A DNA stretch of 64,000 bases from Balanoglossus misakiensis (Eukaryota; Animalia; Hemichordata), in contig CM082590.2 of the NCBI GenBank assembly GCA_040954595.2, forward strand, positions 2,914,001 through 2,978,000, in the 5' to 3' direction. Of this stretch, positions 1,946 to 58,900 are shown piece after piece. The notes beneath the pieces are model-generated. The model had not been told where the DNA came from. It was given only the letters and a program-made list of their open reading frames with translations, and did not search any database. The first letter of the stretch is position 1. Each line of letters begins with the position of its first letter. The position numbers and the translations under genes are program-made.

Positions 1946-1980
1946 AGCTGTATCTGCTGTGCATGCCAAGTTTTGGAAAT

Positions 1981-21782: not shown

Positions 21783-21902
21783 CTAAACAATTGACATGCT
21801 CTGCACTCAGAGAGAAACCATCATCACCACAACTACAGCTGAATCCACCCTCTGCATTGAGAAAACCTCCAGCACAAACAGAATCTGAACACTCATTCAC
21901 AT
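21783..21902 (-). pseudogene. Calcium-binding EGF-like exon (phase 1-1, one Cys lost)
   Basis: TTTCAG| (D)VNECSDSVCAGGFLNAEGGFSCSCGDDGFSLSAEHVNCL |GTAAGT, 120 nt. Confidence 0.85.
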
Positions 21903-22630: not shown

Positions 22631-23589
22631 ACAACCTTAGGACCTGGGATAAGATTTCTCAGATGAGTTGGTGATATTTTGGCTTGTGTTAGTCAACATA
22701 TACCTGATAAGTGTAAAAAATTGCGTCAAGGACACAGTGGTCCCATTCAGTCTACACGGAGTACATATACACAGTCAGATCGCACGGTGCTCATTTGCAT
22801 ATGAAAGTTCATCAAGCGAGCGACCGTTAACTTTCAAACAGACGGCAATAGGCCAGTTTTCAAGGTGATTTTCAACTTGATTTTTACGCTCTGTTGTGCA
22901 ATAAAATACCATGTTAGCTGGATAAATTACGAAAGTGATTCCCATTTTTCACTGCATACGTAAATTTTATGAAAATCTGTGGTAATAGTAAAAGTTTTTA
23001 ACGTGTTTTCGGTGGTATGTTGGTGACCCCGAAAGAGACGTCCACAAACGTGTCAAAAATCATTTGAAAACGACCTCAGAAAGTAACCAAACTTTCCTGA
23101 TAGAGAGGTCTAATATCGGTCCCAACATCCGTGAAAAGAAATTAATTTGAAATGCTTGCGTAACAGGAAGTGTTGCATTGATCGTGAAACGATAAGTTTA
23201 CCATGGGGAAACAGTCTTTGAAAGGCAATTCTTAAGTAAAACAGTTACTGGATAATGGATAACACCCTAAGGTAACATATTAGCCAAGTTTTAACTTAAT
23301 TACTGGCCTGATTTCGACACAACATCGATCAATCGCCTACAAATGTAGGTCCCATATGGACAGAATGCCAGGTTTACCATACATGACTACGTACGTGTGA
23401 GGAGCACAGCTGGTGTATTTTTTTTTCTCCGTATCATGGCCTGGGATATAAGTAGATGTTTCGAATATGCAAAATGCCAACTGTAACTTCGAAACCATTT
23501 CCCTTTATTCGCTGATGATATGTGCAATAAATATTTGTGTCTGAAGGCAAGCAATTTTGTTTTGACTTTTGTTGTCATCATTGCATTGG

Positions 23590-24430
23590 GCTGAACATGA
23601 CAGAGTTTGAGCTGATCAGCTGACTTCAAGTTTCGATTTGGAACATATAATTTGATCATATCAGACAGATATGATGGTCCAAGTCTATGAATGAATTCAA
23701 AAATAAGAAATAACATCTTGAAAACAATACGATCAGACACAGGTAACCAATGCAACTGAAATTGCATTGATGTAAAAGGTGATTTTGGAACTAGCAGCAA
23801 TATTTTGAACTTGAATACGACTGATCTCGTACTTAGGGAGCCCAAATAAAAGTGAATTACACAAATCTATTCGAAATGCAACAAAAGCAGGAACTTTATT
23901 GCTCTGTGGCGGCTTGAGATAAATATTTACAGACAAGTGCAATATGCTGCAAATGAAAAGCGACTGAATGGCAGATCTGTGCAATCATTGTCAGACAATG
24001 AACAGGTTTCAGAGCATCACATGAATTTCTGTAATCCCTCTGGCAGATAGATTACCCGAAGTAGCAGAAAAAATAACAAATTCAGTCTTATCGTTATTTA
24101 AACACAAGACATTTTCAGACATCCAGTACCGCATAAAGCATTCTGGGAGCATTCTCGTTGGTAAAAGACAATGAAGAGCCATCTGCATAAAAGCTATATA
24201 CAGGCATCCATGACTAGAAACTAATTTCCCTAATGGAGAAGTGTACATATTAAAAAGTAGAGGACAAAGAAGTGATCGTTGTGTTACCGCAGTGTCAAGC
24301 GGATAAAATGGTGATTGTTTGGAACACGGTTATAGTAACCATGTCTGAAATTAACACATACACACTGGGTGCGATTGAAAAGGTATGACTGAAACCACAA
24401 CAGGGCTGCAACCCCCAAAAGACCAAATCA
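23590..24430 (-). mobile_element. L2/CR1-clade LINE ORF2 fragment (degenerate RT and C-terminus)
   Basis: Frames give WFQSYLFNRTQCVCVN, LLCPLLFNMY, FYADG (YADD-like), WMSENVLCLNNDKTEFVIF and LHWLPVSDRIVFK...GPSYL. Confidence 0.85.
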
Positions 24431-24447: not shown

Positions 24448-25885
24448 TTAAATGTCATCACAGTCACCATCATTGGAATCACAATCACCATTCTTTGAAT
24501 TATCAGTTTGTTTTTCTTCCGTCCAGTTATATTCATCAGTCAGTTCGTCAAAGTCAGAATCAGTCTCGTAAATATTTCCCTCTTCTTCTCTTAAAATGTC
24601 AAATTCATGTGACTCCTGTAAAATTGCATCAATGCTATTTTCCATATTATGATGTTCAGTATCAGTGATTGGTGATGGTGATTCTAATAGTGGTGACTTA
24701 TCTGTATATTTTGGGCATACCCCATACTTTTTCGATGTGGTACAGAATCCAGGATTCCCATTATGTGGATTACTGCAGTCATTACATCGACACGCAGGGC
24801 CACAACCATTGTGGGTCTTATAACATTTACAACATCTGCTATTACAAGTTGGCATCTTTTTGCAGCCACACCCTTTTGTTAGCAACTCCAAATTATTTTT
24901 CACTTTTTCCAAATTGGCATCACTGTCCTAAATAATATCAAGTTCGCCGTTGCTTAGTCTGTATCCATAATTATTGAATAAGGGAAACGTAACATGGCAC
25001 TGATCGGCCTGGGACCATAACTGAGAGACTCAGCATGATCTTTTCCAGTGCAGTTGTAGGGCTTCAAAGGAAGGGATACATTCTTCCTCATACTGGATAC
25101 GTGGGCAAATTGTTTCTCGTATATATGTAAGCCATTTGATGTGGTTATCTTTAAGACTGTTAGTGACACTGGCTACTTGTCGATAAAGTTCAAAAGGATG
25201 AGATGCATCAAATGCTTGGAAATGTTTCTTAACATAAACACTACCTTTTAAACGTATGAAAGCGAAAATTCCATTCCCTACACTGTCTACTGTTGTGTCT
25301 ATCAGTGTTCCAGGTATAAGGGTGCCACTAGTTATAAATTCAGAGTATTGAAAAAATGTCTTGTAGAAAGATTTCCTTCCGATGCCTGCAAAGTATAGTC
25401 ACAACCTGTGCATATGAACAGTGTTTGAAATATTTTGCCTAAATATTGGAGGGGAATATGTTGCAAATCAGGGTCTAAATTTAAATCTGATTTGAATTGA
25501 TTCATGTCTAAATAAGTGAGATTTGATAAATCATTATCAAGTTGTACAAATATCTCCTTTTGAACATGTTGATATAGTACTGGGAGGAGAACATGATAAG
25601 TATCGGTATCAGGGGAGTAAATAACACCTTTCTTGTAAGAGGACTGAACTGCATGAAGGATGCATCTACTGTCAGCTTCTTCATGACAACTTTTGGCTTC
25701 CCACTCAGACACAATTCCATTACTACCAACGAAAAGACTCTTGTCCCTATTTTCTCCATCAAAGCCACCTGCTGTAATGAGGACCTGATCACCTTGCAGA
25801 GCCGGCACAATTATTTTTAAAGATGTGGCTGACAAGAAGTTCACTAGTTTTCTCTTGTTTGGCTTACAATTGATGTATGTTTTGA
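24448..25885 (-). pseudogene. Academ transposase C-terminus: XPG/FEN-like nuclease fold plus Cys-rich CXC domain
   Basis: NKRKLVNFLS, CHEEADSRCILHA, YSPDTD, LFICTGCDY, then KGCGCKKMPTCNSRCCKCYKTHNGCGPACRCNDCSNP and an acidic tail. Several frameshifts. Confidence 0.85.
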
Positions 25886-26730
25886 GCTAATATTATTGAT
25901 TACCTATTTTTTATGCATTTTTTTGTATTTTTCCATGTTATTAGTAAAAAGTCTTCATTTCTGAAAGTGATGGGCTTACTTCTTTGAAATTTAGCATGAA
26001 GCTTCCTAATGGTTGTCTGAGTAACCATAGTTTTGTTCAAATTGTTGCAAAATTTGCATATTTATAATTTTGAGCAATATTTGCCATTTTTGGTCAATTT
26101 ATTTTTCTTTAAAACCGCATGCCAGATTGCTTTGCAATTTGGTAGGCATGTTCGTAGGTGTAAGTCAAGTAATATGTTGTAAAAAATGTGATATTTTCAT
26201 AAATGTGTTATCGGGGAAACTTTTGCAATTTTTGTCAAAAATTGTTTTCCTGAAACTGTTTGTCATATTGCATAGAACTTTGGCAGCATGTTCCTTGTAG
26301 TGATTGAGGTAAGGTATTGTACAATTTTGTGTTTTTGCCACTTTTGAACAAATATCTTTTGTGAAACTGCTTGTTGATTGCTTTGAAATTAGTTTTTTCT
26401 CTGATTGCTTTGAAATTTGGGATATAATTTCATAACACATACATGTATATGTGCAACTTTTATTCAATTCTGATATCAGAAATATTCAATATTTAGCGAG
26501 TTTTTATGAAAGTTTCTTTGTTTTTGGTTAGCAAATCTTCTCCTTAACCAATTATCCAGTTGTTTTGAAAGTTACTGTTTACAAGGAGTCGTTACCCCCA
26601 ACTTAGACATGTTTACATAACTTCAATAAGCCAGCTGTCAGAGAGACCATGGGCTATTAAATTTTTAATTACCAGTGGCAGGTCAGTGTGTGTGTGTGTG
26701 TGTGTGTGTGTGTCTGTCTGTCTGTCTGTT
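25886..26730 (-). mobile_element. Helentron/CvA-like repeat inserted in the transposase, accompanied by loss of coding sequence
   Basis: Same degenerate core as the 8.5-12.6 kb repeats, on the opposite strand, with a (TG)n(TCTG)n microsatellite at ~26687-26730. Confidence 0.5.
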
Positions 26731-26864: not shown

Positions 26865-27531
26865 TCACCTGTAATTTTTATTCTGGTGTGTCACTGTTTC
26901 TACATAATCCTCAAATGGGACCACAGTGTCCTTGACGCTATTTTTCGCTGTGTCATCTGAAAATATATTAGTTAGCTCCCTGGCGGTATTAAGTGGTGAA
27001 AATACATCAGCACCTTCAAGACAATTGATATACAACCTGCAGTTTGACTCATTTATTTTATGTACGCTAACTGAATTATGGGTTTCATTTTGGAAAGGAA
27101 ATAACTGATCTTTTAGATTCTTGGCAGCCATAGCTCTATAGGGTAAATAAATTGCTATTCTCTCCATTAACCCACCTGTAGAAGTATGCAATGCAGCTTT
27201 AACATCTTTATTGACACACATTTCATGGGCTTCATCTAGTGCTACATTAACCCAAGTTGAGCCTGACAAATTGCAAACAAAACCACCTGCTTTGAAATGT
27301 AACAACAGAGAGTTTGGCATCTTCAGAAGGTCAGCGAGATGTCTGGGAATTAACCTCAAGTACAGGGATCGGTCATATGCATGGAACAGTGGGTTCATTT
27401 GTTTCAAAGCCAATATTCGAAGGTTCCAATTTCCTGACCTTATTGCAATGTACAAAGACATGTATGCAAACAAATCTTCCTCTATAAATCTAACCCAAAA
27501 TTTGAAAGTTTTGTCTGTATTTGCCCTTCTG
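26865..27531 (-). pseudogene. Academ transposase core, region with the third catalytic residue
   Basis: FWVRFIEEDLFAYMSLYIAIRSGNWNLRILALKQMNPLFHAYDRSLYLRLIP ... VALDEAHEMCVNKDVK. Confidence 0.85.
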
Positions 27532-28146
27532 CACAGTACGTGAAATATCCCATGATTCATTCTGATTTGTACAATCATTTACTCAGTCAAACCAGGCAAA
27601 GTTAACATGTGTAGAGAGAATTGTACACCACTAATATAAATTTTGAGATCTTACTTTTAAGGTGAATCTTATTGTCAATTACCATTTCAAATGATTTAGA
27701 AAATTATGCATTATTGAGAGAGGAGATACGAATTTTATAAAATAATCAAGCAATTGCATAGCCAGCCATACAAAAAAGTTTGGAGTAAAACAGGGTCACT
27801 TGTAAAACCTGTTTAATCAAACAAAAAGATATTGATTTTTTCTATTGACAGAACAATGGAAATTTACATGTTAACTTTCAACAGAGACTGGCCACCTCAG
27901 TTAGTCATTGCTTGTTTCCCCTAAAGTGTGACATTTGCAGTACATTGATACTTTGATTTCTATGGCTTTTAAATTTTGATTTTGAAATTTACATTCTAAT
28001 TCCTCAACGTACTTTTCCTAGATAAAAATAAATAGATTTATATGTACTTCATATCATTGTTAGTATCTAAAACAGAAAAAGTTATTAAATGGGCAACCTT
28101 CGATGATACAAATAACGGAGACTTGTGGGTAAAATATCGTACTATG
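27532..28146. mobile_element. Non-autonomous Transib/RAG-like element, 615 bp, 5-bp TSD TTCTG
   Basis: TTCTG|CACAGTACG ... CGTACTATG|TTCTG. Precise removal restores the transposase frame ...FCDRRANTDKTFKFW. Confidence 0.7.
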
Positions 28147-28478
28147 TTCTGTCACAAAAAATCTGAAATTCCTCTTGCAAGCCAGTAAGTTGAGCCTTAA
28201 GGTCACCATTAATTTTGTCAATATGATCAGCTTTATCTTCAGTACATTCCAAACATTTTGTGACAGCTTCTAGTAAACATTTTTGGACTGTTTCTGTATC
28301 TAAGGGACAGTGCTGGGTATTATGGGTTTCACCCCTCTGATTCAAAAAGGAATTGACAAGACATCTAAACATACGTTCCCAAATTTGTGTTGGGAAGCGA
28401 TGAGTTAGCTTGAAATTTGTACACTGAACTAGGGTTTCCGAAGTTCCCCTTATGATTGAACCCTGCCAGATGTTTTAA
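28147..28478 (-). pseudogene. Academ transposase fragment
   Basis: LKHLAGFNHKG, a frameshift, then TLVQCTNFKLTHRFPTQIWERMFRCLVNSFL...EEFQIFCDR. Confidence 0.75.
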
Positions 28479-29274
28479 GATGGGTCCCTAGGATCTTTTT
28501 GCTCGTTGCTATGGGCCTTTATAGGACATTACACCCCGATTTGGACTAAGCCGTTTTCAGAGTCTAACAAGGGGCTGGTAACTAGTTGAAAATCTGCACG
28601 ATTGTGAGCGCGCGCCCCCTGACGCCATTGATATGCAAATTAGCTAGGTCAAATTTCAAAAGCCTAAGGCTTTTTATTCCGTGACCTCAAAAACGAACTT
28701 GATACGTATTCATTAGTTGCTTGAACCAGGGAAGATCGTGACGGATTTTGTTTTCGAATATTATCGTTGTATCCTACGATTTCAGCATACCCGTACCACA
28801 TCTGAAAAAGTCATCGATTTTGGGTGTTTTTGGACGCACTCTTCCACCGGTATCGCTTCTTAGCACGACGAAAACAGAACAAAACGATCCGTCACACTGT
28901 GCGGAAGTACGTTCTCAACAAGCAGGTCAAATTTGACTGGCGTACGTGGCCTATGAAAAAAGCCTTAGGGATTTTCGTGAACGGTACAAAATCTCTGTGT
29001 ACAAAACATTGGATTTTTAGCGTTCGATCCAGTTACTGTGGTTACAGGACGCGCACGCTATCGCTGACCGCTGCTTTGCCGTATTAGCGTGGCGGCCTAT
29101 GGCCGGGCGGTAGCTGCCGTAAACATACTCGGACATGGGGTGTGCACACAATCGTGCAGATTTTCAACTAGTTACCAGCCCCTTGTTAGACTCTGAAAAC
29201 GGCTTAGTCCAAATCGGGGTGTAATGTCCTATAAAGGCCCATAGCAACGAGCAAAAAGATCCCAGGGACCCATC
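28479..29274. mobile_element. Kolobok-like non-autonomous DNA transposon, 796 bp, ~128-bp TIRs, TTAA TSD
   Basis: TTAA (28475-28478)|GATGGGTCCCTAGGATCTTTTTGCTCG... and ...CGAGCAAAAAGATCCCAGGGACCCATC|TTAA (29275-29278). Termini are RR...YY, not the CCC of piggyBac. Confidence 0.85.
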
Positions 29275-29801
29275 TTAAGTCAGCATCCCAGAATATTTTC
29301 ATGATGACTGGTTGGTAATTTTTTAGATTATGCCAGTCTCCGATAAAAGGCTGCAACCAGTCTAAATCTGCACCATACATGTCTTTTAACTTTATCAGGT
29401 GATGGAAAGTTTTCCCATCACCAACCACAACCAGGTATTTTATTCTTACACCAACTCTGAATGTAACATATACAGCTTATTGATAATGTTATGGACAGTT
29501 TCAATAGAGTCTGCGTGTTCACTTGATATGCCCAAATAAATGACATTTGAGCATTCACTGTCATTACTGTTAGCAGTTGTTGCTAATGTTGATTTAAAAT
29601 CCCCAAATACTGTTTCTATATCAGCTCTGTGCATTGTATTTTTTGTAGAGCAAAAATGAATGCGTCAGAAAACAGTTCTGACCAAGCAATGGCTTCTTCT
29701 TGTTTAATGTCAAAATCTGACAGCGAAATTGATGACTGTGGTTGATGTTGTCTCAGTAGAGGTGGTTTAATTAAATACTACATCATCATGAACAGTATCA
29801 T
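29275..29801 (-). pseudogene. Academ transposase core, region with the second catalytic Asp
   Basis: SNVIYLGISSEHADSIETVHNIINKLY, then VVGDGKTFHHLIKLKDMYGADLDWLQPFIGDWHNLKNYQPVIMKIFWDADL. Confidence 0.85.
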
Positions 29802-31517
29802 ATGATAAACCTGGGGGTTTTATGTGGGAGCAACAGCCTATAAAATCCCATGGGGTTTTCTTTGGATACGATCGACTGAAATGTCTACTTTTGAAATGGG
29901 AAAAGAAAATTGAAAGGCTTAAAAGCGTGCTCAACATCTGGTCACGACGTAAGCTGAGCCTTTATGGCAAAATTACGGTTTTAAAGTCTTTGGCACTGCC
30001 CACAATTTACTACCTTATGCTTAATCTTGGTGCTTTTGAAACGTGGCTCACGAATATCAACCGTCTTATTTTCAAATTTCTGTGGAATGACAAGCCAGAC
30101 AAAATCAAAAGGCTCACACTCATTGCCCCTTATGATTGCGGGGGACTAAACATGCCTGACATTTTTGCCATCCATGACGCCTTTTGTTCATCATGGGTTC
30201 GTAGATTATGTGACAATTCCTCTGCCAAATGGAAGGCCTTGCCACTGCATTGGCTCGGGCACTATGGTCCAGATTTTCTTATTTTTCATTTCAATTTTAG
30301 CAACATTTCCTGTTTCCCATTTCTCGAGAGAATTCCCTTTTTCTATAAACAAGTAATTTCAGCTTGGCATAGTGCAAAAGGTGGTTGCGTCACTTTCTCC
30401 AAACTCAGTAATTTAGATGTGCGTAATCAAATTATCTGGGGTAATGTCAACATTTCAGATAATGGTAAGACTCTTTTTTTCCCTGGTTGGATTCACTCAA
30501 ATATTATCTATGTCCAGGACATTGTCGATACCAACGGCGATTTTCTTCCACCTACACTGTTGTTACAAAAACTCGAGAATAAGTCAAATTGGATAGTTGA
30601 ATGGATGAAGTTGCGGAATCTTATTCCCAGAGAATGGAAGTCTGTGTTGAAAGGTACTCAGTTGCATCAGATGCGTAGAGAAAAGAATTTTCTTCATGTC
30701 AATGGAAAAGTTTTTGTTTTACCTAATGATCTGTCTCGCCTTACTTCAAAATTTTTTACAGTATTTTTGTGCAAAATCGTTTTATTCGTCCATATTGTGA
30801 AAATACATGGAATCGTCGTTTGACCATGACTACTCCACTACAGTGGAGAACTATATGGGTTAACCAAACGACTGGATTGTGTTGTGATAGGAAACTTGCT
30901 GAATTTAACTTTAAGATTATGCATAACATTTTGCCATGTGGCATCAATCTTTTAAGATGGAAAATTAGTAAAAATGATCTATGTTGTCTTTGAAATGTAA
31001 CTGATTCTTATGAGCATCTATTTTTAAAATGTCAACGTTTAGGGGATTTTTGGCAGCGTTTATCTGCTTTGCTCAGCAAACTTGGCATATGTCATGAGGT
31101 CGACTTAGAAACTATTATTCTTGGTTACAAAACTATGTACAGTCATCCTCTTTATAGATTTGTAAACATTGTCATTACTATTGCAAAGTATTGTGTATTC
31201 GCTTCATGGGTCCATTTACAACATGATATTAACAGCATTAGAGCAAAAACCAATTTCGATATATTTTACAGATATCTACATCTTATGCACCAAATACTCA
31301 AAAGGAATAATAATCTAGATTTCACCCATTATTGGAAGAAAATCCTTGCTTCCGTCTGAGATGTAATTATTTTGTTAAACAAATGTACCTGGTGAATCTC
31401 TTTTTATATAGTATTATTTTTTATTTATTTATTTATTTATTTATTTCATCAAAACACGATTTATCTTTATGATACATGTAAGATTAAATGAATGGAAATA
31501 AAAAAAAAAAAAAAAAA
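29802..31517 (+). mobile_element. 5'-truncated L1-clade (Tx1-like) LINE with poly(A) tail and 14-bp TSD
   Basis: ORF2 C-terminus WSRRKLSLYGKITVLKSLALP...YDCGGLNMPD and a CCHC-like segment (CCL*...EHLFLKC). Poly(A) at ~31500-31518. TSD ATGAACAGTATCAT at 29788-29801 and 31518-31531. Confidence 0.93.
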
Positions 31518-33560
31518 ATGAACAGTATCATTGAATTTTTTCTCCGTAAATGTACAGGCTTTACTCACAGGTGCACTCAAACCTGTACCAGTATTTTTTG
31601 AGATAGATCTGTCAACCATGATTTTAGTATTATTTCCACAAGGAAAATTGGCCAAAATTTTATTCATTTCAGAGTCTACTGTATTTTGTGAACAAAAGCC
31701 ACTGTTTAATTCCTGACACCGTTCAAATGAATTCTTTGCATTTTCACTCACCAGACTATCTTTTCTTTTAATTAACTGCCTGTTAAGAAGCAAATCATAA
31801 TGGCCTGGTTGACCTGGCCTGTCTGGTGTGTACAAGAGACAGACAGGCTCAGTCTTGGAGAACACATCACCATCACCTCTTGCAAATATATCATTCTGCT
31901 TGGTGTATATATGTCCTTCAAAGTATATATGATTGGCACGCATTATGTCTACTGTATCTGCTCTTAACTTGTCTGTGAATATTTTCTCTCGGTCAGCTAA
32001 AATTGGGTCAGAAGGGAGTCCATTAAGTAGACGATCACAATTTCGTAATGCAAAATCATTTCTCACAGAGATGCTCCTGAAAAAGCACCTTCCATCACCA
32101 TAAATGTTGATTAGCTGAAAATCTTTGACAGTTGAATGTTTGTCATGACTGCCAAAAACAATATCATCAATACTGTTCAGAATTGACTTTGATTTTGGTT
32201 GGACCATTCGATAAGAAGTACCGTGGAAACCTCTGTCCTTTGGATCAGCTCTAACAGCTGCATATTTAGCTGATTTATCAATATTGTCAATGGAAGTTAA
32301 ACAAAATGCATTATTTGCAATATTTTCCTCTGTGAAATCAGCTGATGTTCTTTTGTTGATCACTCCCAACATGTATCTATGCAATGTATCTCCAGAACAA
32401 ATAATACCAAATCAATTTAGAATTTTCACTAGAGTAGATGACTTACTATAACCTTCAACAATGTCAGCCAGGTAAGTATGCAATGGGTAAGTACAATGAT
32501 CAGAACAAATGAACAATAGCATACACACAAAAGAAACGCCTGAGGAATCATGCTCTACTCTCCATAGAGTGCCGGTCATAAAATCCATAGTTGTGTTTAT
32601 TCCATACAAAGTTGGAGCTTTTTAATTTATTGCGTTCACTGTTGTTCAACGTTAAATATACAACAGTGTTCCATAACATAGGGTCAACCTCACTGACAAT
32701 ATATTCAACATCAAGTGTACTCAGATCAACATTGTTTGTTTTGCAGTAATTACTGAATTCTTGAGATTGCTGATAAATGCTGGCATTTAATTTCACAGCC
32801 ACCAAATCAAGCATTTTGAAAAAGTCAACGTCAACTTTACTCAAGTTTCTTACTTGCTTTTCAAGCCTCTCTATCTGTTTCTCAGCTTGCACAACATACT
32901 GAGGATGTTCGACAAGTGCATTTTGGAGGGCAATAGTGAGATCTGAACCTGTTCGGTACAAAAAGGTGGAGAACTTTCTACTCACTTTTGATACAACAGA
33001 AAGGTGAATTGGAAAATACACACATAGCAATTCCCGAATAAGCCAGCTATTAGGTTTTCTGTGGAATTCCACTCGTTGTAACTTGACATTGGGTCGCAAA
33101 GTCTGATATTCATTGTCTAAACAATCATTGAAATATTGCCTGACATCAAACAATAGAATGGCATGTTTTCTGAGGAGCACTTCTCCTAAAAAGACAACAG
33201 TTTTCCAGCATGCAAAATTCACCAAGTCGTCGTCACAGCTGCATCCTTTATTGTAGCATTGTGACATATTTTTTAATTTCTTCAGCAAGTGCTATATCAC
33301 TCGACATAATTAAGCCTTGTTGAATACTACACCTGGCTTTTTCCGCTAAAGCAACAAATGTTTTATAACATTTCAAACAAATCAGGCTGTCTTGAGTAAG
33401 GGCAAATGGTGTGTTAGTTTGTTGGTGAAATGTTTGCACCATTTCAAAATCAGGGATTTTAAACAAATTGTTTGCCCGTGATAAGCACGAAGTACACAAG
33501 GGATGGCTTTTTCTCATAGCAAGGATGTAGTGACGTTGACACAGTGGAAATGATGAAACA
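31518..33560 (-). pseudogene. Academ transposase N-terminal half: Zn finger, helical region, first catalytic Asp and inserted OTU domain
   Basis: PLCQRHY..CTSC...ICLKC; VDPMLWN; PLHTYLADIV; TSIDNID; GFHGTSYRMVQPK; then IYGDGRCFFRSIS ... VCLLY...GHYDLL. Confidence 0.8.
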
Positions 33561-34449
33561 TCCTTTAAAACCTGAGTTGTCTATACTCAATTTTGTACAC
33601 AGTCCTCCTCGCCTGAAATCAGCTCTATAATGTCGCGTAAAAAATGGCCTATTTTGCGACCCTTCAGCGGGGCCCACTCTAACAGCTACATGGTTTGAAG
33701 TACTTTCCCTCATTAACATATGTTAATGAGTACCGTGCGATCTGACTGTACAGACAGAATAACACACATCGAGAGATTAACAGGCAAACACTGGCTGACC
33801 CATAAGCGGCCAATGGCATGTGTACTGTACACACAGCAAATGGTCTCTTTAACATATAGCCAGTTATGTAAACATGCAGTTACCAATCACTGTTATTATT
33901 GACAAATTGCATCCAAGTCCAGACACAGGCTTGAATACAATGTTTAAACAATAACAACATTGCTTACCCAGCTTCACCGAGCTGAAATGATCGTTGACAA
34001 CCAGAATAATACTGAATAAAAATTCAAAAATTACAGATACAGGACCTTTCGTTGCCCACATTTTATATTACCGTGGTCTGTGCGTCGCATTTTAATTGGT
34101 CAAGATGAACGACATCACTGACCACAAATACCCAGTAATGGTTTGTTTACATGCCCGTAAATCTGAATAGTAATATTAGCAAACAGTTCAGTGAACACAA
34201 CATTTTGCATAACACAAGTTCCGGGGCCCCAAGTCTTGTGTGTGGGACATTTTCAGAAATATTGACGGTTTTCTTGAGATTGTTGGTAATGTAATGGAAA
34301 TAAATGCAGGGCTCGGGCTCTAGCTAAGCTAAAATTAATGGGCTCGGAAGCCTCGCCCATGAATTTTTGGCTTTCCCCTCGCCCTTGCCCATAAACAAAC
34401 ATTAATGGTCATGGCGTCGTGCATTATTTCTATATTGTGTTGATCTTAC

Positions 34450-34566
34450 CTGTACACTCTCCATTGACCAATCAATATTCCACAGCACAAGTGAAATAAA
34501 AAGAGCCTGCTGTATTCACACACTGGCCTTCACAAAGATCTGCTCTCTCCATATATTCATTGACAT
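34450..34566 (-). pseudogene. Degenerate calcium-binding EGF exon with an in-frame stop
   Basis: TTTCAG| (D)VNEYMERADLCEGQCVNTAGSFYFTCAVEY*LVNGECT |GTAAGA, 117 nt, phase 1-1. Confidence 0.8.
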
Positions 34567-35823: not shown

Positions 35824-35946
35824 CGGCACATGCATGGCCATCCTCCAGCAGATAGAATCCTGGTCTGCAAGTGCAGAGATAACTACCATGGGTATTCTGA
35901 CAATAGTGTTGACATGCATATCCACCACTGTGACATTCATTCATAT
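35824..35946 (-). CDS. Intact calcium-binding EGF exon (phase 1-1)
   Basis: CTCCAG| (D)MNECHSGGYACQHYCQNTHGSYLCTCRPGFYLLEDGHACA |GTATGT, 123 nt, all six Cys present. Confidence 0.85.
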
Positions 35947-36196
35947 CTGGAGGGTAAGAAGAAATTAGAAATTATTTACAAGCATTGAATTCACTTTAAT
36001 TCCTTGGATTAAAAATACAGAAAAAATAGCCAACAGCTACTACAGCTAACTTAGCAAAAATGTCGACAAAATTTTACAGTGACACTGGCGTACTCTGCCA
36101 CTGATATGAGGATATAAGAAAGGGAACTGGAATATTTTTTCCTCTGTATAATCAAATTAACAGTAAATGACTGCCATGGCAACATAACAGATGTTA

Positions 36197-46331: not shown

Positions 46332-46916
46332 TATATTCTGCGGAACTTTTGAAAGTTCCCGATCTCGTATCCTAAGGACGCCAGCAGAATTTCCTGCGGC
46401 ATTTTAATTCTCATTCAAATATGAAAGAAACAAAACTAACCCGGTGTGAATTAGTTGGTTTAAAGGGGAGTTGGGGCAGGGTCTTCTTTCGGTAGTTTTG
46501 ACCCCCAATAAGGCCTATTTACGGAGAGGATCTCTTATTCTTCAAATTTATTAATGGAAGTCGCGTATATGGGTAAGGGACCATTTAGTTTTTACGGCCG
46601 GGTGGGGCGGCAAAATCCAGGGGGGGGGGTCACTTAAATTTTGAAGTCCGAAAGTGGGGGTAATCTTTTTTTTAAAAACGTTTAGGGGGTCACATACTTT
46701 TGCCGCAAAACTTTTGCTTTGAGTCCACAAAATTGCAGTTTCGCGCCCTTAATTTTACAAGATTTTCTAATATGGGAGGGGGACACCCCATCCCACACCC
46801 ACCCCTCCATTCTTCGCTACATTTCATTTATTGTCTGGTTTGTCTAGTGTACAAGGGCAGACTACTTGCCACACCACCACACCGATGCTTACTTTGAGTG
46901 GAGTGGCAAAAGTAAA

Positions 46917-49900
46917 ATGCGCAGAACACATAGATAGGCCTATGCGCATAAGAACGTTTTCCACTAGACTCTGTGGATCGACGGATAGTTCCAAAATGCC
47001 CATGGTTGCTTCCAAACAGCCTCGTTTATTTACCGAATTCTGTTGTGAGGCACATAACACATAGATAGGCCTATGTGCATAAGAAAGTTTTCCACTAGAC
47101 TCTGTAGATCGAGAGATAGTTCTAAAATATCCATGGTTGCCTCAAAACACAGCCTCGTTTGTTTACAAAAATCTGTTGTGATGCGCAGAACACATAGATA
47201 GGCCTATGCGCATAAGAACGTTTTCCACTAGACCTTTTAGATCGACGGATAGTTCTAAAATTTCCATGGTTGTTTCCAAACAGCCTCGTTTATTTACCGA
47301 TTTCTGTTGTGAGGCGCTGAACACATAGATAGGCCTATGCGCATAAGAAAGTTTTCCACTAGACGCTGAAGATCGACGGATAGTTCTAAAATTTCCATGG
47401 TTGCTTCCAAACAGCCTCGTTTATTTACCGATTTCTGTTGTGAGGCGCAGAACACATGATAGGCCCATGCTCATAAGAAATTTTTCCACTAGACTGTGTA
47501 GATCGAGAGATAGTTCAAAAATTTCCGTGGTTGCTTCCAAACAGCCTCGTTTGTTTACAAAATTATTTTGTGATGCGCAGAACACATAGATAGGCCTATG
47601 CGCAAAAGAACGTTTTCCACTAGACTCTGTAGATCGATGGATAGTTCTAAAATTTACATGGGTGCTTCTAAACAGCCTCGTTTATTTACCGATTTCTGTT
47701 GTGAGGCGCTGAACACATGATAGGCCTATACGCATAAGAAAGTTTTCCACTATACTCTGTAGATCGACGGATAGTTGTAAAATTTCAATGGTTGCTTCCA
47801 AACAGCCTCGTTTATTTACCGAATTCTGTTGTGATGCGCAGAACACATGATAGGACTATGCGCATAAGAAATTTTTCCACTAGACCCTGTAGATCGACGG
47901 GTTGTTCTAAAATTTCCATAGTTGCTTCCAAACAGCCTCGTTTATTTACCGAATTCTGTTGTTAGGCGCAGAACACGTGATAGGCCTATGCGCATAAGAA
48001 AGTTTTCCACTAGACTCTGTAGATCGACGGATAGTTCTAAAATTGCCATGGTTGCTTCCAAACAGCCTCGTTAATTTACCGATTTCTGTTGTGAGGCGCA
48101 GAACACATGATAGGCCTATGCGCATAAGAAATTTTTCCACTAGACTCTGTAGATCGACGGATAGTTCTAAAATGTCCATGGTTGCTTCCAAACAGCCTCG
48201 TTTATTTAATGAATTCTGTTGTGATGCGCAGAACACATGATAGGCCTATGCGCATAAGAATTTTTCCACTAGACTCTGTAGATCGACGGATAGTTCTAAA
48301 ATATCCATACTTGCTGCCAAACAGCCTCGTTTATTTACCGAATTATGTTGTGAGGCGCAGAACACGTGATAGGCCTATGCGCATCAGAAAGTTTTCCACT
48401 AGACTCTGTAGATCGAGAGATAGTTCTAAAATTTCCAATGTTGCCTCAAAACACAGCCTCGTTTGTTTACAAAATTCTGTTGTGATGCGCAGAACACATA
48501 GATAGGCCTATGCACATAAGAACGTTTTCCACTAGACTCTGTAGATCGACGGATAGTTCTAAAATTTCCATGGTTGCTTCCAAACACAGTCTCGTTTGTT
48601 TACAAAAGTCTGCAGTGATGCGCAGAACACATGATAGGCCTATGCGCATAAGAAACTTTTTCACTGTAGATCGACGGATAGTTCTAAAATTTCCATAGAC
48701 TCTGTAGATCGAGAGATAGTTCTAAAATTTCCATGGTTGCTTCCAAACACAGCCTCGTTTGTTTACAAAATTCTTTTGTGATGCGCAGAACACATAGCTA
48801 GGCCTATGCGCATAAGAAAGTTTTCCACTAGACTCTGTAGATCGACGGATAGTTCTAAAATTTCCATGGTTGCTTCCAAACAGCCTCGTTTATTTACCGA
48901 ATTCTGTTGTGAGGCGCAGAGCACGTAATAGGCCTATGCGCATACGAAAGTTTTCCACCAGACTCCGTAGATCGACGGATAGTTGTAAAATTCCATGGTT
49001 GTTTCCAAACACAGCCTCGTTTATTTACCGATTTCTGTTGTGAGGCGCTGAACACATGATAGGCCTATACGCATAAGAAAGTTTTCCACTATACTCTGTA
49101 GATCGACGGATAGTTCTAAAATTTCCATGGTTGCTTCCAAACAGCCTCGTTTATTTACCGATTTCTGTTGTGAGGCGCAGAACACATGATAGGCCCATGC
49201 TCATAAGAAATTTTTCCACTAGACTGTGTAGATCGAGAGATAGTTCAAAAATTTCCGTGGTTGCTTCCAAACAGCCTCGTTTGTTTACAAAATTATTTTG
49301 TGATGCGCAGAACACATAGATAGGCCTATGCGCAAAAGAACGTTTTCCACTAGACTCTGTAGATCGACGGATAGTTGTAAAATTTCAATGGTTGCTTCCA
49401 AACAGCCTCGTTTATTTACCGAATTCTGTTGTGATGCGCAGAACACATGATAGGACTATGCGCATAAGAAATTTTTCCACTAGACTCTGTAGATCGACGG
49501 GTAGTTCTAAAATTTCCATAGTTGCTTCCAAACAGCCTCGTTTATTTACCGAATTCTGTTGTTAGGCGCAGAACACGTGATAGGCCTATGCGCATAAGAA
49601 AGTTTTCCACTAGACTCTGTAGATCGACGGATAGTTCTAAAATTGCCATGGTTGCTTCCAAACAGCCTCGTTAATTTACCGATTTCTGTTGTGAGGCGCA
49701 GAACACATGATAGGCCTATGCGCATAAGAAATTTTTCCACTAGACTCTGTAGATCGACGGATAGTTCTAAAATGTCCATGGTTGCATCCAAACAGCCTCG
49801 TTTATTTAATGAATTCTGTTGTGATGCGCAGAACACATGATAGGCCTATGCGCATAAGAATTTTTCCACTAGACTCTGTAGATCGACGGATAGTTCTAAA

Positions 49901-52900
49901 ATATCCATACTTGCTGCCAAACAGCCTCGTTTATTTACCGAATTATGTTGTGAGGCGCAGAACACGTGATAGGCCTATGCGCATCAGAAAGTTTTCCACT
50001 AGACTCTGTAGATCGAGAGATAGTTCTAAAATTTCCAATGTTGCCTCAAAACACAGCCTCGTTTGTTTACAAAATTCTGTTGTGATGCGCAGAACACATA
50101 GATAGGCCTATGCACATAAGAACGTTTTCCACTAGACTCTGTAGATCGACGGATAGTTCTAAAATTTCCATGGTTGCTTCCAAACACAGTCTCGTTTGTT
50201 TACAAAAGTCTGCAGTGATGCGCAGAACACATGATAGGCCTATGCGCATAAGAAACTTTTTCACTGTAGATCGACGGATAGTTCTAAAATTTCCTTAGAC
50301 TCTGTAGATCGAGAGATAGTTCTAAAATTTCCATGGTTGCTTCCAAACACAGCCTCGTTTGTTTACAAAATTCTTTTGTGATGCGCAGAACACATAGCTA
50401 GGCCTATGCGCATAAGAAAGTTTTCCACTAGACTCTGTAGATCGACGGATAGTTCTAAAATTTCCATGGTTGCTTCCAAACAGCCTCGTTTATTTACCGA
50501 ATTCTGTTGTGAGGCGCAGAGCACGTAATAGGCCTATGCGCATACGAAAGTTTTCCACCAGACTCCGTAGATCGACGGATAGTTGTAAAATTCCATGGTT
50601 GTTTCCAAACACAGCCTCGTTTATTTACCGATTTCTGTTGTGAGGCGCTGAACACATGATAGGCCTATACGCATAAGAAAGTTTTCCACTATACTCTGTA
50701 GATCGACGGATAGTTCTAAAATTTCAATGGTTGCTTCCAAACAGCCTCGTTTATTTACCGAATTCTGTTGTGATGCGCAGAACACATGATAGGACTATGC
50801 GCATAAGAAATTTTTCCACTAGACTCTGTAGATCGACGGGTAGTTCTAAAATTTCCATAGTTGCTTCCAAACAGCCTCGTTTATTTACCGAATTCTGTTG
50901 TTAGGCGCAGAACACGTGATAGGCCTGTGCGCATAAGAAATTTTTCCACTAGACTCTGTAGATCGACGGATAGTTCTAAAATGTCCATGGTTGCTTCCAA
51001 ACAGCCTCGTTTATTTACCGAATTCTGTTGTTAGGCGCAGAACACGTGATAGGCCTGTGCGCATAAGAAAGTTTTCCACTAGATTCTGTAGATCGACGGA
51101 TAGTTCTAAAATATCCATACTTGCTTCCAAACAGCCTCGTTTATTTACCGAATTATGTTGTGAGGCGCAGAACACGTGATAGGCCTATGCGCATTAGAAA
51201 GTTTTCCACTAGACTCTGTAGATCGAGAGATAGTTCTAAAATTTCCAAGGTTGCTTCCAAACACAGTCTCGTTTGTTTACAAAAGTCTGCAGTGATGCGC
51301 AGAACACATGATAGGCCTATGCGCATAAGAAACTTTTTCACTGTAGATCGACGGATAGTTCTAAAATTTCCATAGACTCTGTAGATCGAGAGATAGTTCT
51401 AAAATTTCCATGGTTGCTTCCAAACACAGCCTCGTTTGTTTACAAAATTCTTTTGTGATGCGCAGAACACATAGCTAGGCCTATGCGCATAAGAAAGTTT
51501 TCCACTAGACTCTGTAGATCGACGGATAGTTCTAAAATGTCCATGGTTGATTTCAAACAGCCTTGTTTATTTACCGAATTCTGCTGTGATGCGCAGAACA
51601 CATAGATAGGCCTATGTGCATAAGAAAGTTTTCCACTAGACTCTGTAGATCGACGGATAGTTCTAAAATTTCCATGGTTGCATCCAAACAGCCTCGTTTA
51701 TTTACCGATTTCTGTTGTGAGGCGCAGAACACGTGATAGGCCTATGCGCATAAGAAAGTTTTTTACTAGACTCTGCAGATCGACGGATAGTTCTAAAATT
51801 TCCATGGTTGCTTCCAAACACAGCCTCGTTTATTTCCAAATTCTGTTGTAATGCGCAGAACTCATAGATAGGCCTATGCGCATAAGAACGTTTTCCACTA
51901 TACTCTATAGATCGACGGATAGTTCTAAAATTTCCATGGTTGCTTCCAAACACAGCCTCGTTTGTTTACAAAATTCTGCAGTGATGCGCAGAACACATGA
52001 TAGGCCTATGCGCATAAGAAACTTTTTCACTGTAGATCGACGGATAGTTCTAAAATTTCCATGGTTGATTCCAAACACAACCTCGTTTGTTTACAAAATT
52101 CTGTTGTAATGCGCAGAACACATAGCTAGGCCTATGCGCATAAGAAAGTTTTCCACTAGACTCTGTAGATCGAGAGATAGTTCTAAAATATACATGGTTG
52201 CCTCAAAACACAGCCTCGTTTGTTTACAAAATTCTGTTGTGATGCGCAGAACACATAGATAGGCCTATGTGCATAAGAAAGTTTTCCACTAGACTCTGTA
52301 GATCGACGGATAGTTCTAAAATTTCCATGGTTGCATCCAAACAGCCTCGTTTATTTACCGATTTCTGTTGTGAGGCGCAGAACACGTGATAGGCCTATGC
52401 GCATAAGAAAGTTTTTTACTAGACTCTGCAGATCGACGGATAGTTCTAAAATTTCCATGGTTGCTTCCAAACACAGCCTCGTTTATTTCCAAATTCTGTT
52501 TTAATGCGCAGAACACATAGATAGGCCTATGCGCATAAGAACGTTTTCCACTAGACTCTATAGATCGACGGATAGTTCTAAAATTTCCATGGTTGCTTCC
52601 AAACACAGCCTCGTTTGTTTACAAAATTCTGCAGTGATGCGCAGAACACATGATAGGCCTATGCGCATAAGAAACTTTTTCACTGTAGATCGACGGATAG
52701 TTCTAAAATTTCCATGGTTGATTCCAAACACAACCTCGTTTGTTTACAAAATTCTGTTGTAATGCGCAGAACACATAGCTAGGCCTATGCGCATAAGAAA
52801 GTTTTCCACTAGACTCTGTAGATCGAGAGATAGTTCTAAAATATACATGGTTGCCTCAAAACACAGCCTCGTTTGTTTACAAAATTCTGTTGTGATGCGC

Positions 52901-55900
52901 AGAACACATAGATAGGCCTATGCGCATAAGAACGTTTTCCACTAGACCTTTTAGATCGACGGATAGTTCTAAAATTTCCATGGTTGTTTCCAAACAGCCT
53001 CGTTTATTTACCGATTTCTGTTGTGAGGCGCTGAACACATAGATAGGCCTATGCGCATAAGAAAGTTTTCCACTAGAAGCTGAAGGTCGATGGATAGTTC
53101 TAAAATTTCCATGGTTGCTTCCAAACAGCCTCGTTTATTTACCGATTTCTGTTGTGAGGCGCAGAACACATGATACGCCCATGCGCATAAGAAATTTTTC
53201 CACTAGACTCTGTAGATCGACGGATAGTTCTATAATGTCCATGGTTGCTTCCAAACAAAGCCTCGTTTGTTTACAAAATTCTGTTGTGATGCGCAGAACA
53301 CATATATAGGCCTATGCGCATATGAACGTTTCCCACTATACTCTGTAGATCGAGAGATAGTTCTAAAATTTCCATGTTTGCTTACAAACAGCCTCGTTTA
53401 TTTACGGAATTCTGTTTTGAGGCGCAGAACACATAGATAGGCATATGTGCATAAGAAAGTTTTCCACTATAGACTCTGTAGATCGAGAGATAGTTCTAAA
53501 ATTTCCATGGTTGCTTCCAAACACAGCCTCGTTTGTTTACAAAATTCTGTTGTGATGCGCAGAACACATATATAGGCCTATGCGCATAAGAACGTTTTCC
53601 ACTAGACTCTGTAGAACGACGCTTAGCTGTAAAATGTCCATGGTTGCTTCCAAACTGCTTCGTTTATTTACCGATTTCTGTTGTGAGGCGCAGAACACAT
53701 GATAGGCCTATGCGCATAAGACATTTTTCCACTAGACTCTGTAGATCGACGGATAGTTCTAAAATTTCCATGGTTGCTTCCAAACAGCCTCGTTTATTTA
53801 CCGAATTCTGTTGTGAGGCGCAGAACACGTAATATACCTATGCGCATTAGAAAGTTTTCCACAAGACTCTGTAGATCGACGGATAGATGTAAAATGTCCA
53901 TGGTTGATTCCAAACACAACCTCGTTTGTTTACAAAATTCTGTTGTAATGCGCAGAACACATAGCTAGGCCTATGCGCATAAGAAAGTTTTCCACTAGAC
54001 TCTGTAGATCGAGAGATAGTTCTAAAATATACATGGTTGCCTCAAAACACAGCCTCGTTTGTTTACAAAATTCTGTTGTGATGCGCAGAACACATAGATA
54101 GGCCTATGCGCATAAGAACGTTTTCCACTAGACCTTTTAGATCGACGGATAGTTCTAAAATTTCCATGGTTGTTTCCAAACAGCCTCGTTTATTTACCGA
54201 TTTCTGTTGTGAGGCGCTGAACACATAGATAGGCCTATGCGCATAAGAAAGTTTTCCACTAGACGCTGAAGGTCGATGGATAGTTCTAAAATTTCCATGG
54301 TTGCTTCCAAACAGCCTCGTTTATTTACCGATTTCTGTTGTGAGGCGCAGAACACATGATACGCCCATGCGCATAAGAAATTTTTCCACTAGACTCTGTA
54401 GATCGACGGATAGTTCTATAATGTCCATGGTTGCTTCCAAACAAAGCCTCGTTTGTTTACAAAATTCTGTTGTGATGCGCAGAACACATATATAGGCCTA
54501 TGCGCATATGAACGTTTCCCACTATACTCTGTAGATCGAGAGATAGTTCTAAAATTTCCATGTTTGCTTACAAACAGCCTCGTTTATTTACGGAATTCTG
54601 TTTTGAGGCGCAGAACACATAGATAGGCATATGTGCATAAGAAAGTTTTCCACTATAGACTCTGTAGATCGAGAGATAGTTCCAAAATTTCCATGGTTGC
54701 TTCCAAACACAGCCTCGTTTGTTTACAAAATTCTGTTGTGATGCGCAGAACACATATATAGGCCTATGCGCATAAGAACGTTTTCCACTAGACTCTGTAG
54801 AACGACGGATAGCTGTAAAATGTCCATGGTTGCTTCCAAACTGCTTCGTTTATTTACCGATTTCTGTTGTGAGGCGCAGAACACATGATAGGCCTATGCG
54901 CATAAGACATTTTTCCACTAGACTCTGTAGATCGACGGATAGTTCTAAAATTTCCATGGTTGCTTCCAAACAGCCTCGTTTATTTACCGAATTCTGTTGT
55001 GAGGCGCAGAACACGTAATATACCTATGCGCATTAGAAAGTTTTCCACAAGACTCTGTAGATCGACGGATAGATGTAAAATGTCCACGGTTGCTTCCAAA
55101 TACAGCCTCGTTTATTTACCGATTTCTGTTGTGATGCGCATAACACATATATAGGCCTATGCGCAAAAGAACGTTTTCCACTAGACTCTGTAGATCGACG
55201 GATAGCTGTAAAATTTCCATGTTTGCTTCCAAACAGCCTCGTTTATTTACGGAATTCTGTTGTGAGGCGCAGAACACGTAATAGGCCTATGCGCATTAGA
55301 AAGTTTTCCACAGGATTCTGTAGATCGACGGATAGTTGTAAAATGTCCATGGTTGCTTCCAAATACTCTGTAGATCGAGAGATAGTTCTAAAATTTCCAT
55401 GTTTGCTTACAAACAGCCTCGTTTATTTACGGAATTCTGTTTTGAGGCGCAGAACACATAGATAGGCATATGTGCATAAGAAAGTTTTCCACTATAGACT
55501 CTGTAGATCGAGAGATAGTTCTAAAATTTCCATGGTTGCTTCCAAACACAGCCTCGTTTGTTTACAAAATTCTGTTGTGATGCGCAGAACACATATATAG
55601 GCCTATGCGCATAAGAACGTTTTCCACTAGACTCTGTAGAACGACGGATAGCTGTAAAATGTCCATGGTTGCTTCCAAACTGCCTCGTTTATTTACCGAT
55701 TTCTGTTGTGAGGCGCAGAACACATGATAGGCCTATGGGCATAAGACATTTTTCCACTAGACTCTGTAGATCGACGGATAGTTCTAAAATTTCCATGGTT
55801 GCTTCCAAACAGCCTCGTTTATTTACCGAATTCTGTTGTGAGGCGCAGAACACGTAATAGACCTATGCGCATTAGAAAGTTTTCCACAAGACTCTGTAGA

Positions 55901-58900
55901 TCGACGGATAGATGTAAAATGTCCACGGTTGCTTCCAAATACAGCCTCGTTTATTTACCGATTTCTGTTGTGATGCGCATAACACATATATAGGCCTATG
56001 CGCAAAAGAACGTTTTCCACTAGACTCTGTAGATCGACGGATAGCTGTAAAATTTCCATGTTTGCTTCCAAACAGCCTCGTTTATTTACGGAATTCTGTT
56101 GTGAGGCGCAGAACACGTAATAGACCTATGCGCATTAGAAAGTTTTCCACAAGACTCTGTAGATCGACGGATAGATGTAAAATGTCCACGGTTGCTTCCA
56201 AATACAGCCTCGTTTATTTACCGATTTCTGTTGTGATGCGCATAACACATATATAGGCCTATGCGCAAAAGAACGTTTTCCACTAGACTCTGTAGATCGA
56301 CGGATAGCTGTAAAATTTCCATGTTTGCTTCCAAACAGCCTCGTTTATTTACGGAATTCTGTTGTGAGGCGCAGAACACGTAATAGGCCTATGCGCATTA
56401 GAAAGTTTTCCACAGGACTCTGTAGATCGACGGATAGTTGTAAAATGTCCATGGTTGCTTCCAAATACAGCCTCGTTTATTTACCGATTTCTGTTGTGAT
56501 GCGCATAACATATATATAGGCCTATGCGCAAAAGAACGTTTTCCACTAGACTCTGTAGATCGACGGATAGCTGTAAAATTTCCATGTTTGCTTGCAAACA
56601 GCCTTGTTTATTTACGGAATTCTGTTTTGAGGCGCAGAACACATGATAGGCCTATGCGCATACGACATTTTTCCACTAGACTCTGTAGATCGACGGATAG
56701 TTGTAACATTTCCATGGTTGCTTCCAAACAACCTCGTTTGTTTACCGAATTCTGTTGTGATGCGCAGAACACATATATAGGCCTATGCGCATAAGAACGT
56801 TTTCCACTAGACTCTGTAGATCGACGGATAGTTGTAAAATGTTCATGGTTGCTTCCAAATACAGCCTCGTTTATTTACCGATTTCTGTTGTGATGCGCAT
56901 AACACATAGATAGGCCTATGCGCATTATAACGTTTTCCACTAGACTCTGTAGATCGACGGATAGTTGTAAAATTTCCATGGTTGCTTCCAAACAGCCTCG
57001 TTTATTTACCGAATTCTGTTGTTAGGCGCAGAACACGTTATAGGCCTATGCGCATTAGAAAGTTTTCCACCAGACTCTGTAGATCGAAGGATTTTTGTAA
57101 AATTTCCATGGTTGCTTCCAAACAACCTCGTTTGTTTACGAATTCTGTTGTGATGCGCAGAACACATATATAGGGCTATGCGCATAAGAAAGTTTTCCAC
57201 CAGACTCCGTAGATCGACGGATAGTTGTAAAATTTCCATGGTTGCTTCCAAACAGCCTCGTTTATTTACCGAATTCTGTTGTGAGGCGCAGAACACATAG
57301 ATAGGCATATGTGCATAAGAAAGTTTTCCACTATAGACTCTGTAGATCGAGAGATAGTTCTAAAATGTCCATGGTTGCTACCAAACACAGCCTCGTTTGT
57401 TTACAAAATTCTGTTGTGATGCGCAGAACACATAGATAGGCCTATGCGCATATGAACGTTTTCCACCATACACTGTAGATCGAGAGATAGTTCTAAAACT
57501 TCCATGTTTGCTTCCAAACAGCCTCGTTTATTTGCGGAATTCTGTTTTGAGGCGCAGAACACATAGATAGGCATATGTGAATAAGACAGTTTTCCACTAT
57601 AGACTCTGTAGATCGAGAGATAGTTCTAAAATATACATGGTTGCTTCCAAACAGCCTCGTTTATTTACCGATTTCTGTTGTGAGGCGCAGAACACATAGA
57701 TAGGCCTATGCGCATGAAAAACTTTTCAACTTTAGATCAACGGATAGTTCTAAAATTTCCATGGTTGTTTCCAAACAGCCTCGTTTATTTACCGAATTCT
57801 GTTGTGATGCGTAGAACACATACATATGCCTATGCGCATAAGAAAGTTTTCCACTAGACTCCGTAGATCGACGAATAGTTCTAAAATGTCCATGGTTGCT
57901 TCCAAACAAAGCCTGGTTTGTTTACAAAATTCTGTTGTGAAGCGCAGAACACATAGATAGGCCTATGCGCATATGAACGTTTTCCACTATACTCTGTAGA
58001 TCGAGAGATAGTTCTAAAATTTCCATGTTTGCTTCCAAACAGCCTCGTTTATTTACGGAATTCTGTTTTGAGGCGCAGAACACATAGATAGGCATATGTG
58101 CATAAGAAAGTTTTCCACTATAGACTCTGTAGATCGAGAGATAGTTCTAAAATGTCCATGGTTGCTTCCAAACACAGCCTCGTTTGTTTACAAAATTCTG
58201 TTGTGATGCGCAGAACACATATATAGGCCTATGCGCATAATAACGTTTTCCACTAGACTCTGTAGATCGACGGATAGTTGTAAAATTTCCATGGTTGCTT
58301 CCAGACAGCCTCGTTTATTTACCGAATTCTGTTGTAAGGCACAGAACACATAGATAGGCCTATGTGCATAAGAAAGTTTTCCACTATAGACTCTGTAGAT
58401 CGAGAGATAGTTCTAAAATGTCCATGGTTGCTTCCAAACACAGCCTCGTTTGTTTACAAAATTCTGTTGTGATGCGCAGAACACATATATAGGCCTATGC
58501 GCATAATAACGTTTTCCACTAGACTCTGTAGATCGACGGATAGTTGTAAAATTTCCATGGTTGCTTCCAAACAGCCTCGTTTATTTACCGAATTCTGTTG
58601 TGAGGCGCAGAACACATAGATAGGCATATGTGCATAAGAAAGTTTTCCACTATAGACTCTGTAGATCGAGAGATAGTTCTAAAATGTCCATGGTTGCTAC
58701 CAAACACAGCCTCGTTTGTTTACAAAATTCTGTTGTGAAGCGCAGAACACATATATAGGCCTATGCGCATAAGAACGTTTCCACTAGACTCTGTAGATCG
58801 ACGGATAGTTGTAAAATTTCCATGGTTGCTTCCAAACAGCCTCGTTTATTTACCGAATTCTGTTGTTAGGCGCAGAACACGTTATAGGCCTATGCGCATA

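Follow-up and report, generated by a model that had tools for sequence, protein, structure and literature searches.

An OTU cysteine protease domain predicted to lie inside the catalytic fold of AcademX-type transposases, including a decayed copy in Balanoglossus misakiensis

The window analysed here, i.e. the whole 64,000-nucleotide stretch of contig CM082590.2 of the hemichordate Balanoglossus misakiensis (assembly GCA_040954595.2, positions 2,914,001 to 2,978,000 of the forward strand), contains a defunct AcademX DNA transposon, which encodes an OTU cysteine protease domain between the first and second conserved aspartates of its transposase. An OTU domain is found at the same site in 17 related proteins. 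In intact relatives, this domain is probably a deubiquitinase that guards the transposase or its DNA complex, a reading which draws on analogy with other transposons and to which we assign a probability of roughly 55%.

On the minus strand, a stop-free frame (31467-32411) contains FHGTSYRMVQPK, the first-Asp motif TSIDNID (32297-32277), GDGRCFFRS (32099-32073), and GHYDLLL (31805-31785), confirming an earlier sequence-only reading, which had placed the first-Asp motif and an OTU signature in one frame at these positions. The segment 32192..32300 (minus strand) encodes the first two RNase H strands, including the HGTS strand and the first catalytic Asp (32286-32288), which is homologous to D445 of the relative P0012 (56/56 rows). 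The internally deleted OTU protease domain (31782..32120, minus strand; Asp 32094-32096, Cys 32085-32087, His 31800-31802, and Asp 31794-31796) is followed by a linker on the same strand (31518..31781) that ends at a retrotransposon insertion. The sequence-only reading also had the transposase motifs resume after the OTU domain; VVGDG (Asp 29417-29419), GDWH (29330-29338), and DEAHE (27222-27233) are indeed present on the minus strand, but they lie in open reading frames (ORFs) separate from that of the OTU domain, with a poly(A)-tailed insertion, a terminal inverted repeat (TIR) element, and frameshifts in between. The Pfam comparison suggested for the OTU domain was likewise only partly positive: the window domain alone gave no match to Pfam OTU, a non-significant match to Peptidase_C65 (E 0.054), and chance matches only among PDB sequences, whereas 6 of the 17 relatives score above the Pfam OTU cut-off. 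A profile constructed from the OTU domains of the 17 relatives, with the window row excluded, gave two separate matches to the window ORF (profile positions 1-64 and 138-166; E 7.8e-19 and 2.4e-08 among 134 proteins). Because this window-free profile matches and these six relatives pass the Pfam cut-off, the OTU similarity of the window segment is more than a chance resemblance.

Relatives were collected using phmmer with a 215-residue window segment (111 proteins at E <= 0.001) and by searching with the corresponding part of P0012 (18 proteins, 10 of which cover at least 90% of that part). A word-index search with the window ORF returned no match among 873 candidates, although the full HMMER search did match, and an Atlas search with residues 435-670 of P0012 returned no usable match. 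In 17 relatives, the first-Asp motif, the HGTS strand, and the OTU domain follow one another in the same order and with the same spacing. The named hosts are Branchiostoma lanceolatum (2,213 aa), Patiria miniata, Amphiura filiformis (two proteins), Owenia fusiformis, Acanthaster planci, and Asterias amurensis, and the UniRef label of the Patiria protein is 'OTU domain-containing protein'. The unbroken OTU-bearing relatives are 1,746-2,213 aa in length and represent three phyla (lancelet, echinoderms, and annelid). The claim that the fusion belongs to a lineage and is not a private insertion is therefore upheld: the 17 relatives carry the OTU domain at the same site, and the unbroken ones share the same junctions.

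The OTU domains of the 17 relatives have a mean identity of 40% (26-88%), and the putative catalytic Cys and His are both present in the window copy and in 17/17 relatives. Two positions past the His, 14 relatives have Asp and the other 3 have Asn, Glu, or Gln (Asp or Asn in 15/17). Among PDB entries, a profile of 27 OTU-bearing proteins matched viral OTUs and OTUD5 (E 7e-07), in alignments that take in the Cys loop as well as the central Y-x-G-x-x-E helix. When the 49 proteins that contain the first-Asp motif and at least 235 residues after it were classed by script, 18 kept Cys and His, 4 were remnants, and 27 were without OTU, proportions that are biased because two of the queries contained the OTU domain. 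The 18 include the window ORF and P0007, both internally deleted, and the 27 include P0139, which does have an OTU domain, and three cluster mates of P0082. The distance from the first Asp to GDWH is 438-496 residues in 16/17 proteins with OTU and 179-273 residues in 21/22 OTU-less AcademX proteins.

The position of the domain relative to the catalytic fold was examined in an AlphaFold2 model of P0012 (58 sequences; mean predicted local distance difference test score 81.5), in which strands were numbered according to the standard RNase H strand order. The strand containing D445 (441-450) and the HGTS strand (464-474) are followed by the OTU domain (~500-665), a disordered linker, a strand (856-863), a helix (870-883), and a strand (893-897) ending at D898; further on are a strand (919-923) ahead of GDWH, a long helical domain, and a helix (1156-1172) that carries E1158 and E1161. 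Conservation is complete for D445 (56/56 rows), D898 (49/49), and both E1158 and E1161 (34/34 each), and, judging from conservation and the model, the catalytic Glu may be either E1158 or E1161. Every match listed by Foldseek for the P0012 model was an OTU structure. In VIA-align comparisons, residues 479-665 matched OTUD1 (Z 12.1, root mean square deviation 2.9, 142 residues aligned), and residues 352-1179 matched the P-element transposase (Z 12.5, root mean square deviation 6.5, 340 aligned); Hermes gave a Z of 8.3, and integrase cores aligned starting at 433-436. Foldseek, VIA-align, and the profile matches to PDB OTUs thus agree on a predicted OTU fold in P0012 and, with the Pfam matches in the relatives, substantiate the OTU identity proposed from the sequence alone. 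The OTU is predicted to be a domain of its own in the loop between RNase H strands 2 and 3 that leaves the core fold intact; its location inside the DDE fold, which had also been proposed, is consistent with the model, the VIA-align results, and the conservation of the flanking D445, D898, and E1161. A loop of a DDE core would then be able to take a whole folded enzyme, and the conserved residues help to narrow down the likely triad of catalytic residues in the Academ transposase, which has been little studied.

Features of Academ elements include a C-terminally fused XPG-family nuclease and a C-terminal Cys-rich domain. DUF6589, which we take to be a mark of Academ, gave weak matches in the window ORFs and matches above the cut-off in colinear relatives. 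The layout of the window element is presumably that of AcademX, which is said to be a lineage of the Academ superfamily in reports by Kapitonov and Jurka in 2010 and by Kojima in 2020. DUF6589, the invariant D/D/E residues, and an RNase H fold like those of P element and Hermes identify an Academ-type DDE transposase. The XPG-family nuclease is represented by window ORF 25335-25886, which aligns at 35% with the acidic residues invariant, and by a model of the P0003 nuclease, which has structural matches to XRN, Exo1, and FEN1. The C-terminal Cys-rich part matches TCR/CXC (E 0.006 in the window, below the cut-off) and, in a profile comparison, lin-54 CXC. AcademH, which is distinguished by a Superfamily II helicase and a 9-10-bp target-site duplication (TSD), was considered and rejected, as the chain goes on with the nuclease and CXC domains; Pfam matched no helicase in the full-length relatives or window ORFs tested. 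AcademX encodes a nuclease and generates 3-4-bp TSDs (PMC10045372; here and below, papers cited by PMC number are represented by excerpts). The present lineage shares with AcademX the DUF6589-type DDE core, the fused XPG/FEN1-family nuclease, the C-terminal CXC domain, and the absence of a visible helicase; it differs in the ~165-residue OTU domain located between the first and second Asp, and TIRs and a 3-4-bp TSD were not found for the decayed window copy.

The OTU domain of the window copy is itself broken. The sequence-only reading had suspected that its central helix was deleted near YFEG/HIYT, and both the alignment with relatives, which shows a gap of 46-51 residues in the window copy at YFEG/HIYT, and contigs of sequencing run X4 bear this out, placing the junction of an in-frame 144-base (48-codon) deletion at 31914. 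In run X4, a 203-nt contig (depth 1,808) begins with the 30 letters of 31885-31914 and ends with the 30 letters of 31914-31943, and a 59-nt contig (depth 1,405) runs straight through the junction. The two forms indicate that a version 144 bases (48 codons) longer exists at the predicted junction, as judged from contig ends and length in this one sequencing sample. Over the deletion junction, the window sequence does not differ from a 1,098-base contig of run X2, which may be its source. The Y-x-G-x-x-E helix is among the central OTU helices lost through the deletion; the central helical lobe with its conserved G-x-x-E helix is missing from the window copy and present in 16/17 relatives, and its loss is a sign of a broken copy and not a trait of the family.

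A core tree constructed without the OTU columns (37 rows and 493 columns; proteins without either motif left out) requires four changes of the OTU label. A single origin without later loss was rejected, as the OTU-bearing rows do not form one clade (approximately unbiased test, p 1e-76). The main subclades of the core tree recur in the OTU tree (50 rows), and OTU and core pairwise identities are correlated (Mantel r 0.80, p 0.0002, 15 proteins), indicating that the transposase and its OTU domain have been passed on together for long periods. The OTU domain has been cleanly lost at least once, in the sea-urchin clade. Since the window row (in both trees) and the Owenia OTU are placed without support, the domain may have entered this site more than once, and the present distribution may reflect one old gain or several gains there; the trees are unrooted as to the OTU donor. 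The same OTU subfamily is found at the N-terminus of a DUF4371 (hAT-type) protein (P0036) and near the C-terminus, after the DDE_1 domain, of four pogo-type transposases (P0049, P0050, P0091, and P0136). Two further proteins of ~1,450-1,500 aa (P0033 and P0089) contain three tandem OTU-like domains of this subfamily, most of which lack the catalytic Cys; a Mab-21_C match below the cut-off in P0033 suggests cGAS-like receptors with OTU repeats.

A single chain combines a Cys-rich N-terminus, a D-[OTU]-D-E core, an XPG/FEN1-family nuclease, and a CXC tail. In the proposed function, the OTU domain of intact relatives would act as a protease on ubiquitin substrates, and deubiquitination would keep the transposase, or its complex with DNA, from ubiquitin-marked removal by the host. 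Activity, substrate, and benefit are attributed to the domain by analogy with the VTD domains of Helitrons, which are active K48/K63 deubiquitinases for which a protective role has been proposed (PMC9741609). The benefit would be conditional, because OTU-less lineages persist. The lineage offers intact OTU domains of soluble size as well as natural pairs of close OTU-bearing and OTU-less transposases, i.e. the starfish and sea-urchin clades.

Several observations weigh against this deubiquitinase reading. Eight OTU-less proteins, including those of Diadema and Lytechinus, nest inside the OTU-bearing ones with starred support, and four AcademX proteins (P0027, P0053, P0060, and P0103) retain degenerate OTU remnants at the same site from which the catalytic Cys is gone; because of this nested clade and these Cys-less remnants, the OTU domain appears to be dispensable for transposition. 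Matches to Pfam OTU are below the cut-off in 6/17 relatives and absent in 5/17. The roles of the D/D/E residues are predicted from conservation and the model. Ubiquitin is not the only modifier cleaved by OTU folds, which also act on ubiquitin-like proteins (the Foldseek matches include complexes with ISG15), and, according to the excerpts of PMC9741609, transposon OTU domains had not been tested as of 2022.

Among the alternatives, it is conceivable, though we think it unlikely, that an active OTU acts on host proteins at the DNA, freeing histones or repair factors of ubiquitin at the donor and target sites and thereby steering break processing in favour of the element. In the model, the domain is attached to the catalytic sheet next to the first Asp, the same chain holds a nuclease of the FEN1/Exo1/XRN fold, and a role in DNA repair was proposed for the OTU and Ulp1 domains of Ginger1 by Bao et al. 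(PMC2836005). However, placement beside the active site is not required, since the same subfamily is N-terminal in the hAT-type protein and near the C-terminus in the pogo-type proteins, and a host-protein substrate is putative. Less probable again is a passenger status, in which the OTU was captured once or several times by a tolerant loop and is randomly lost, without benefit to the element. The variable linker at the OTU site of OTU-less AcademX proteins (179-273 residues from the first Asp to GDWH), the losses and remnants, and two independent internal deletions (window copy and P0007) would fit such a history, but Cys, His, and GDGxCxxR are near invariant while identity drops to 26-40%, and OTU identity (40%) is close to core identity (50%); the OTU-containing queries favour conserved copies, and degenerate copies were returned too. 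We regard as improbable the idea that the OTU serves in maturation, by cleaving a ubiquitin-like Gly-Gly leader from the transposase itself. Two lancelet proteins, P0008 (168-253) and P0082 (228-301), share a segment of ~80 residues that ends in GxGGG before the first zinc finger and for which Atlas returned ubiquitin-like clusters at 0.87-0.89 (a lead only), but such a leader is present in 2 of 26 N-termini examined, P0082 has no OTU domain, Pfam gives no ubiquitin match to the leader, and both proteins are automatic gene models. Finally, the possibility that the fusion is artificial, produced by nested insertion or by gene prediction in the window, for which the many insertions in the element and the missing TIRs and TSD might speak, is refuted by the alignment of unbroken relatives from three phyla with the same junctions and by the tblastn colinearity of the window pieces with them. 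Beyond the deubiquitinase reading itself, we tentatively suggest a broader picture, in which an undescribed cross-phylum AcademX lineage carries a working deubiquitinase grafted into its RNase H sheet, where the strand 2-3 loop accepts modules directed against the host, and in which members of one OTU subfamily move between transposases of the Academ, hAT, and pogo types and a protein with a Mab-21 domain. Ubiquitin-mediated removal of transposases would then be a host defence that is countered by transposons of marine invertebrates; this picture is possible but doubtful as a whole.

In tblastn searches with five long relatives, colinear pieces of the window element were identified from ~33550 down to 24600, in the order Cys-rich N-terminus, first Asp, OTU, VVGDG, GDWH, helical domain, DEAHE, nuclease, and CXC tail. 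The N-terminal Cys-rich and helical part (32301..33550, minus strand; identified by tblastn with full-length relatives) contains stops and frameshifts. Downstream of the OTU domain and its linker, the 3' piece of a non-LTR retrotransposon with a poly(A) tail (29802..31517, plus strand), presumably of the L1/Tx1 type (Pfam gave no match), has been inserted with a 14-bp target duplication (29788-29801 and 31518-31531). The transposase resumes on the minus strand with strands 3-5, the second catalytic Asp, and GDWH (29279..29787; DUF6589 E 6e-4 and tblastn) and is then interrupted by a non-coding TIR element (28479..29274) with ~140-nt arms and a TTAA duplication. The start of the helical insertion domain (28151..28474; tblastn), the end of that domain with the DEAHE helix (26871..27545, Glu 27222-27224; tblastn, Pfam scan, and motif positions), the XPG/FEN1-family nuclease and C-terminal CXC domains (24745..25886; EAD, DTD, and GCDY motifs and one frameshift), and an acidic tail with the stop codon (24448..24744) follow, all on the minus strand; the element also contains two further intervening stretches and lacks a match for ~210 residues. 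The stops, frameshifts, insertions, and 48-codon OTU deletion mark this copy as dead. No TIR pair was found for the decayed element in the window: a 33-nt inverted match (33717-33749 and 22771-22803) does not extend, and the window contains no partner for a candidate TAG end at 34432.

Just beyond the transposase stop is what we take, from its motif, to be a decayed reverse-transcriptase-like fragment (23560-24330, minus strand). Three EGF-like host-gene exons on the same strand as the transposase (21785-21900, 34450-34566, and 35824-35947) flank the element and point to an animal host, the middle one (34450-34566) containing a stop codon and having lost cysteines. Satellite arrays with units of ~130-133 bases, in part with a higher-order spacing of ~1,600, and with units of 116 bases occupy 46800-64000 and 1-5570.

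In the literature covered, no link between Academ and OTU was found, no OTU occurrence was present in the excerpts of PMC10294476, PMC9587614, and PMC10799480, and nothing relevant was present among the matches listed for ubiquitin and transposases. Kojima 2020, Repbase, Dfam, and supplements lie outside that scope, and the novelty is therefore provisional. The Academ OTU resembles those of OTUD1, OTUD3, OTUD5, and nairoviruses in its fold (Z 11-12), Asp-Gly-x-Cys loop, central G-x-x-E helix, and His loop, whereas identity is only 15-21%, ~30 extra residues follow the Cys helix, and the domain is embedded in a transposase. Helitrons carry OTU domains (PMC9741609, PMC6431247), and the OTU and VTD domains of Helitrons and Helentrons are likewise transposon-encoded deubiquitinase folds with conserved catalytic residues, the VTDs being active, but their hosts are rolling-circle RepHel proteins and not DDE enzymes. 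A further parallel is Ginger1, in which 7 of the 16 families of Table 1 carry a C-terminal OTU (PMC2836005) and which, like the present lineage, combines a DDE transposase and an OTU cysteine protease in one chain in aquatic invertebrates; the question of what ubiquitin proteases do for transposons dates back to 2010 or earlier (PMC2836005). An OTU domain on a DDE transposase is thus already known, and the pairing of transposon and protease is a recurring one. What is provisionally new here is the host superfamily, Academ, and the place of the domain: the core of Ginger1 is of the integrase type and its protease (OTU or Ulp1) is C-terminal, whereas the Academ OTU lies inside the predicted catalytic fold.
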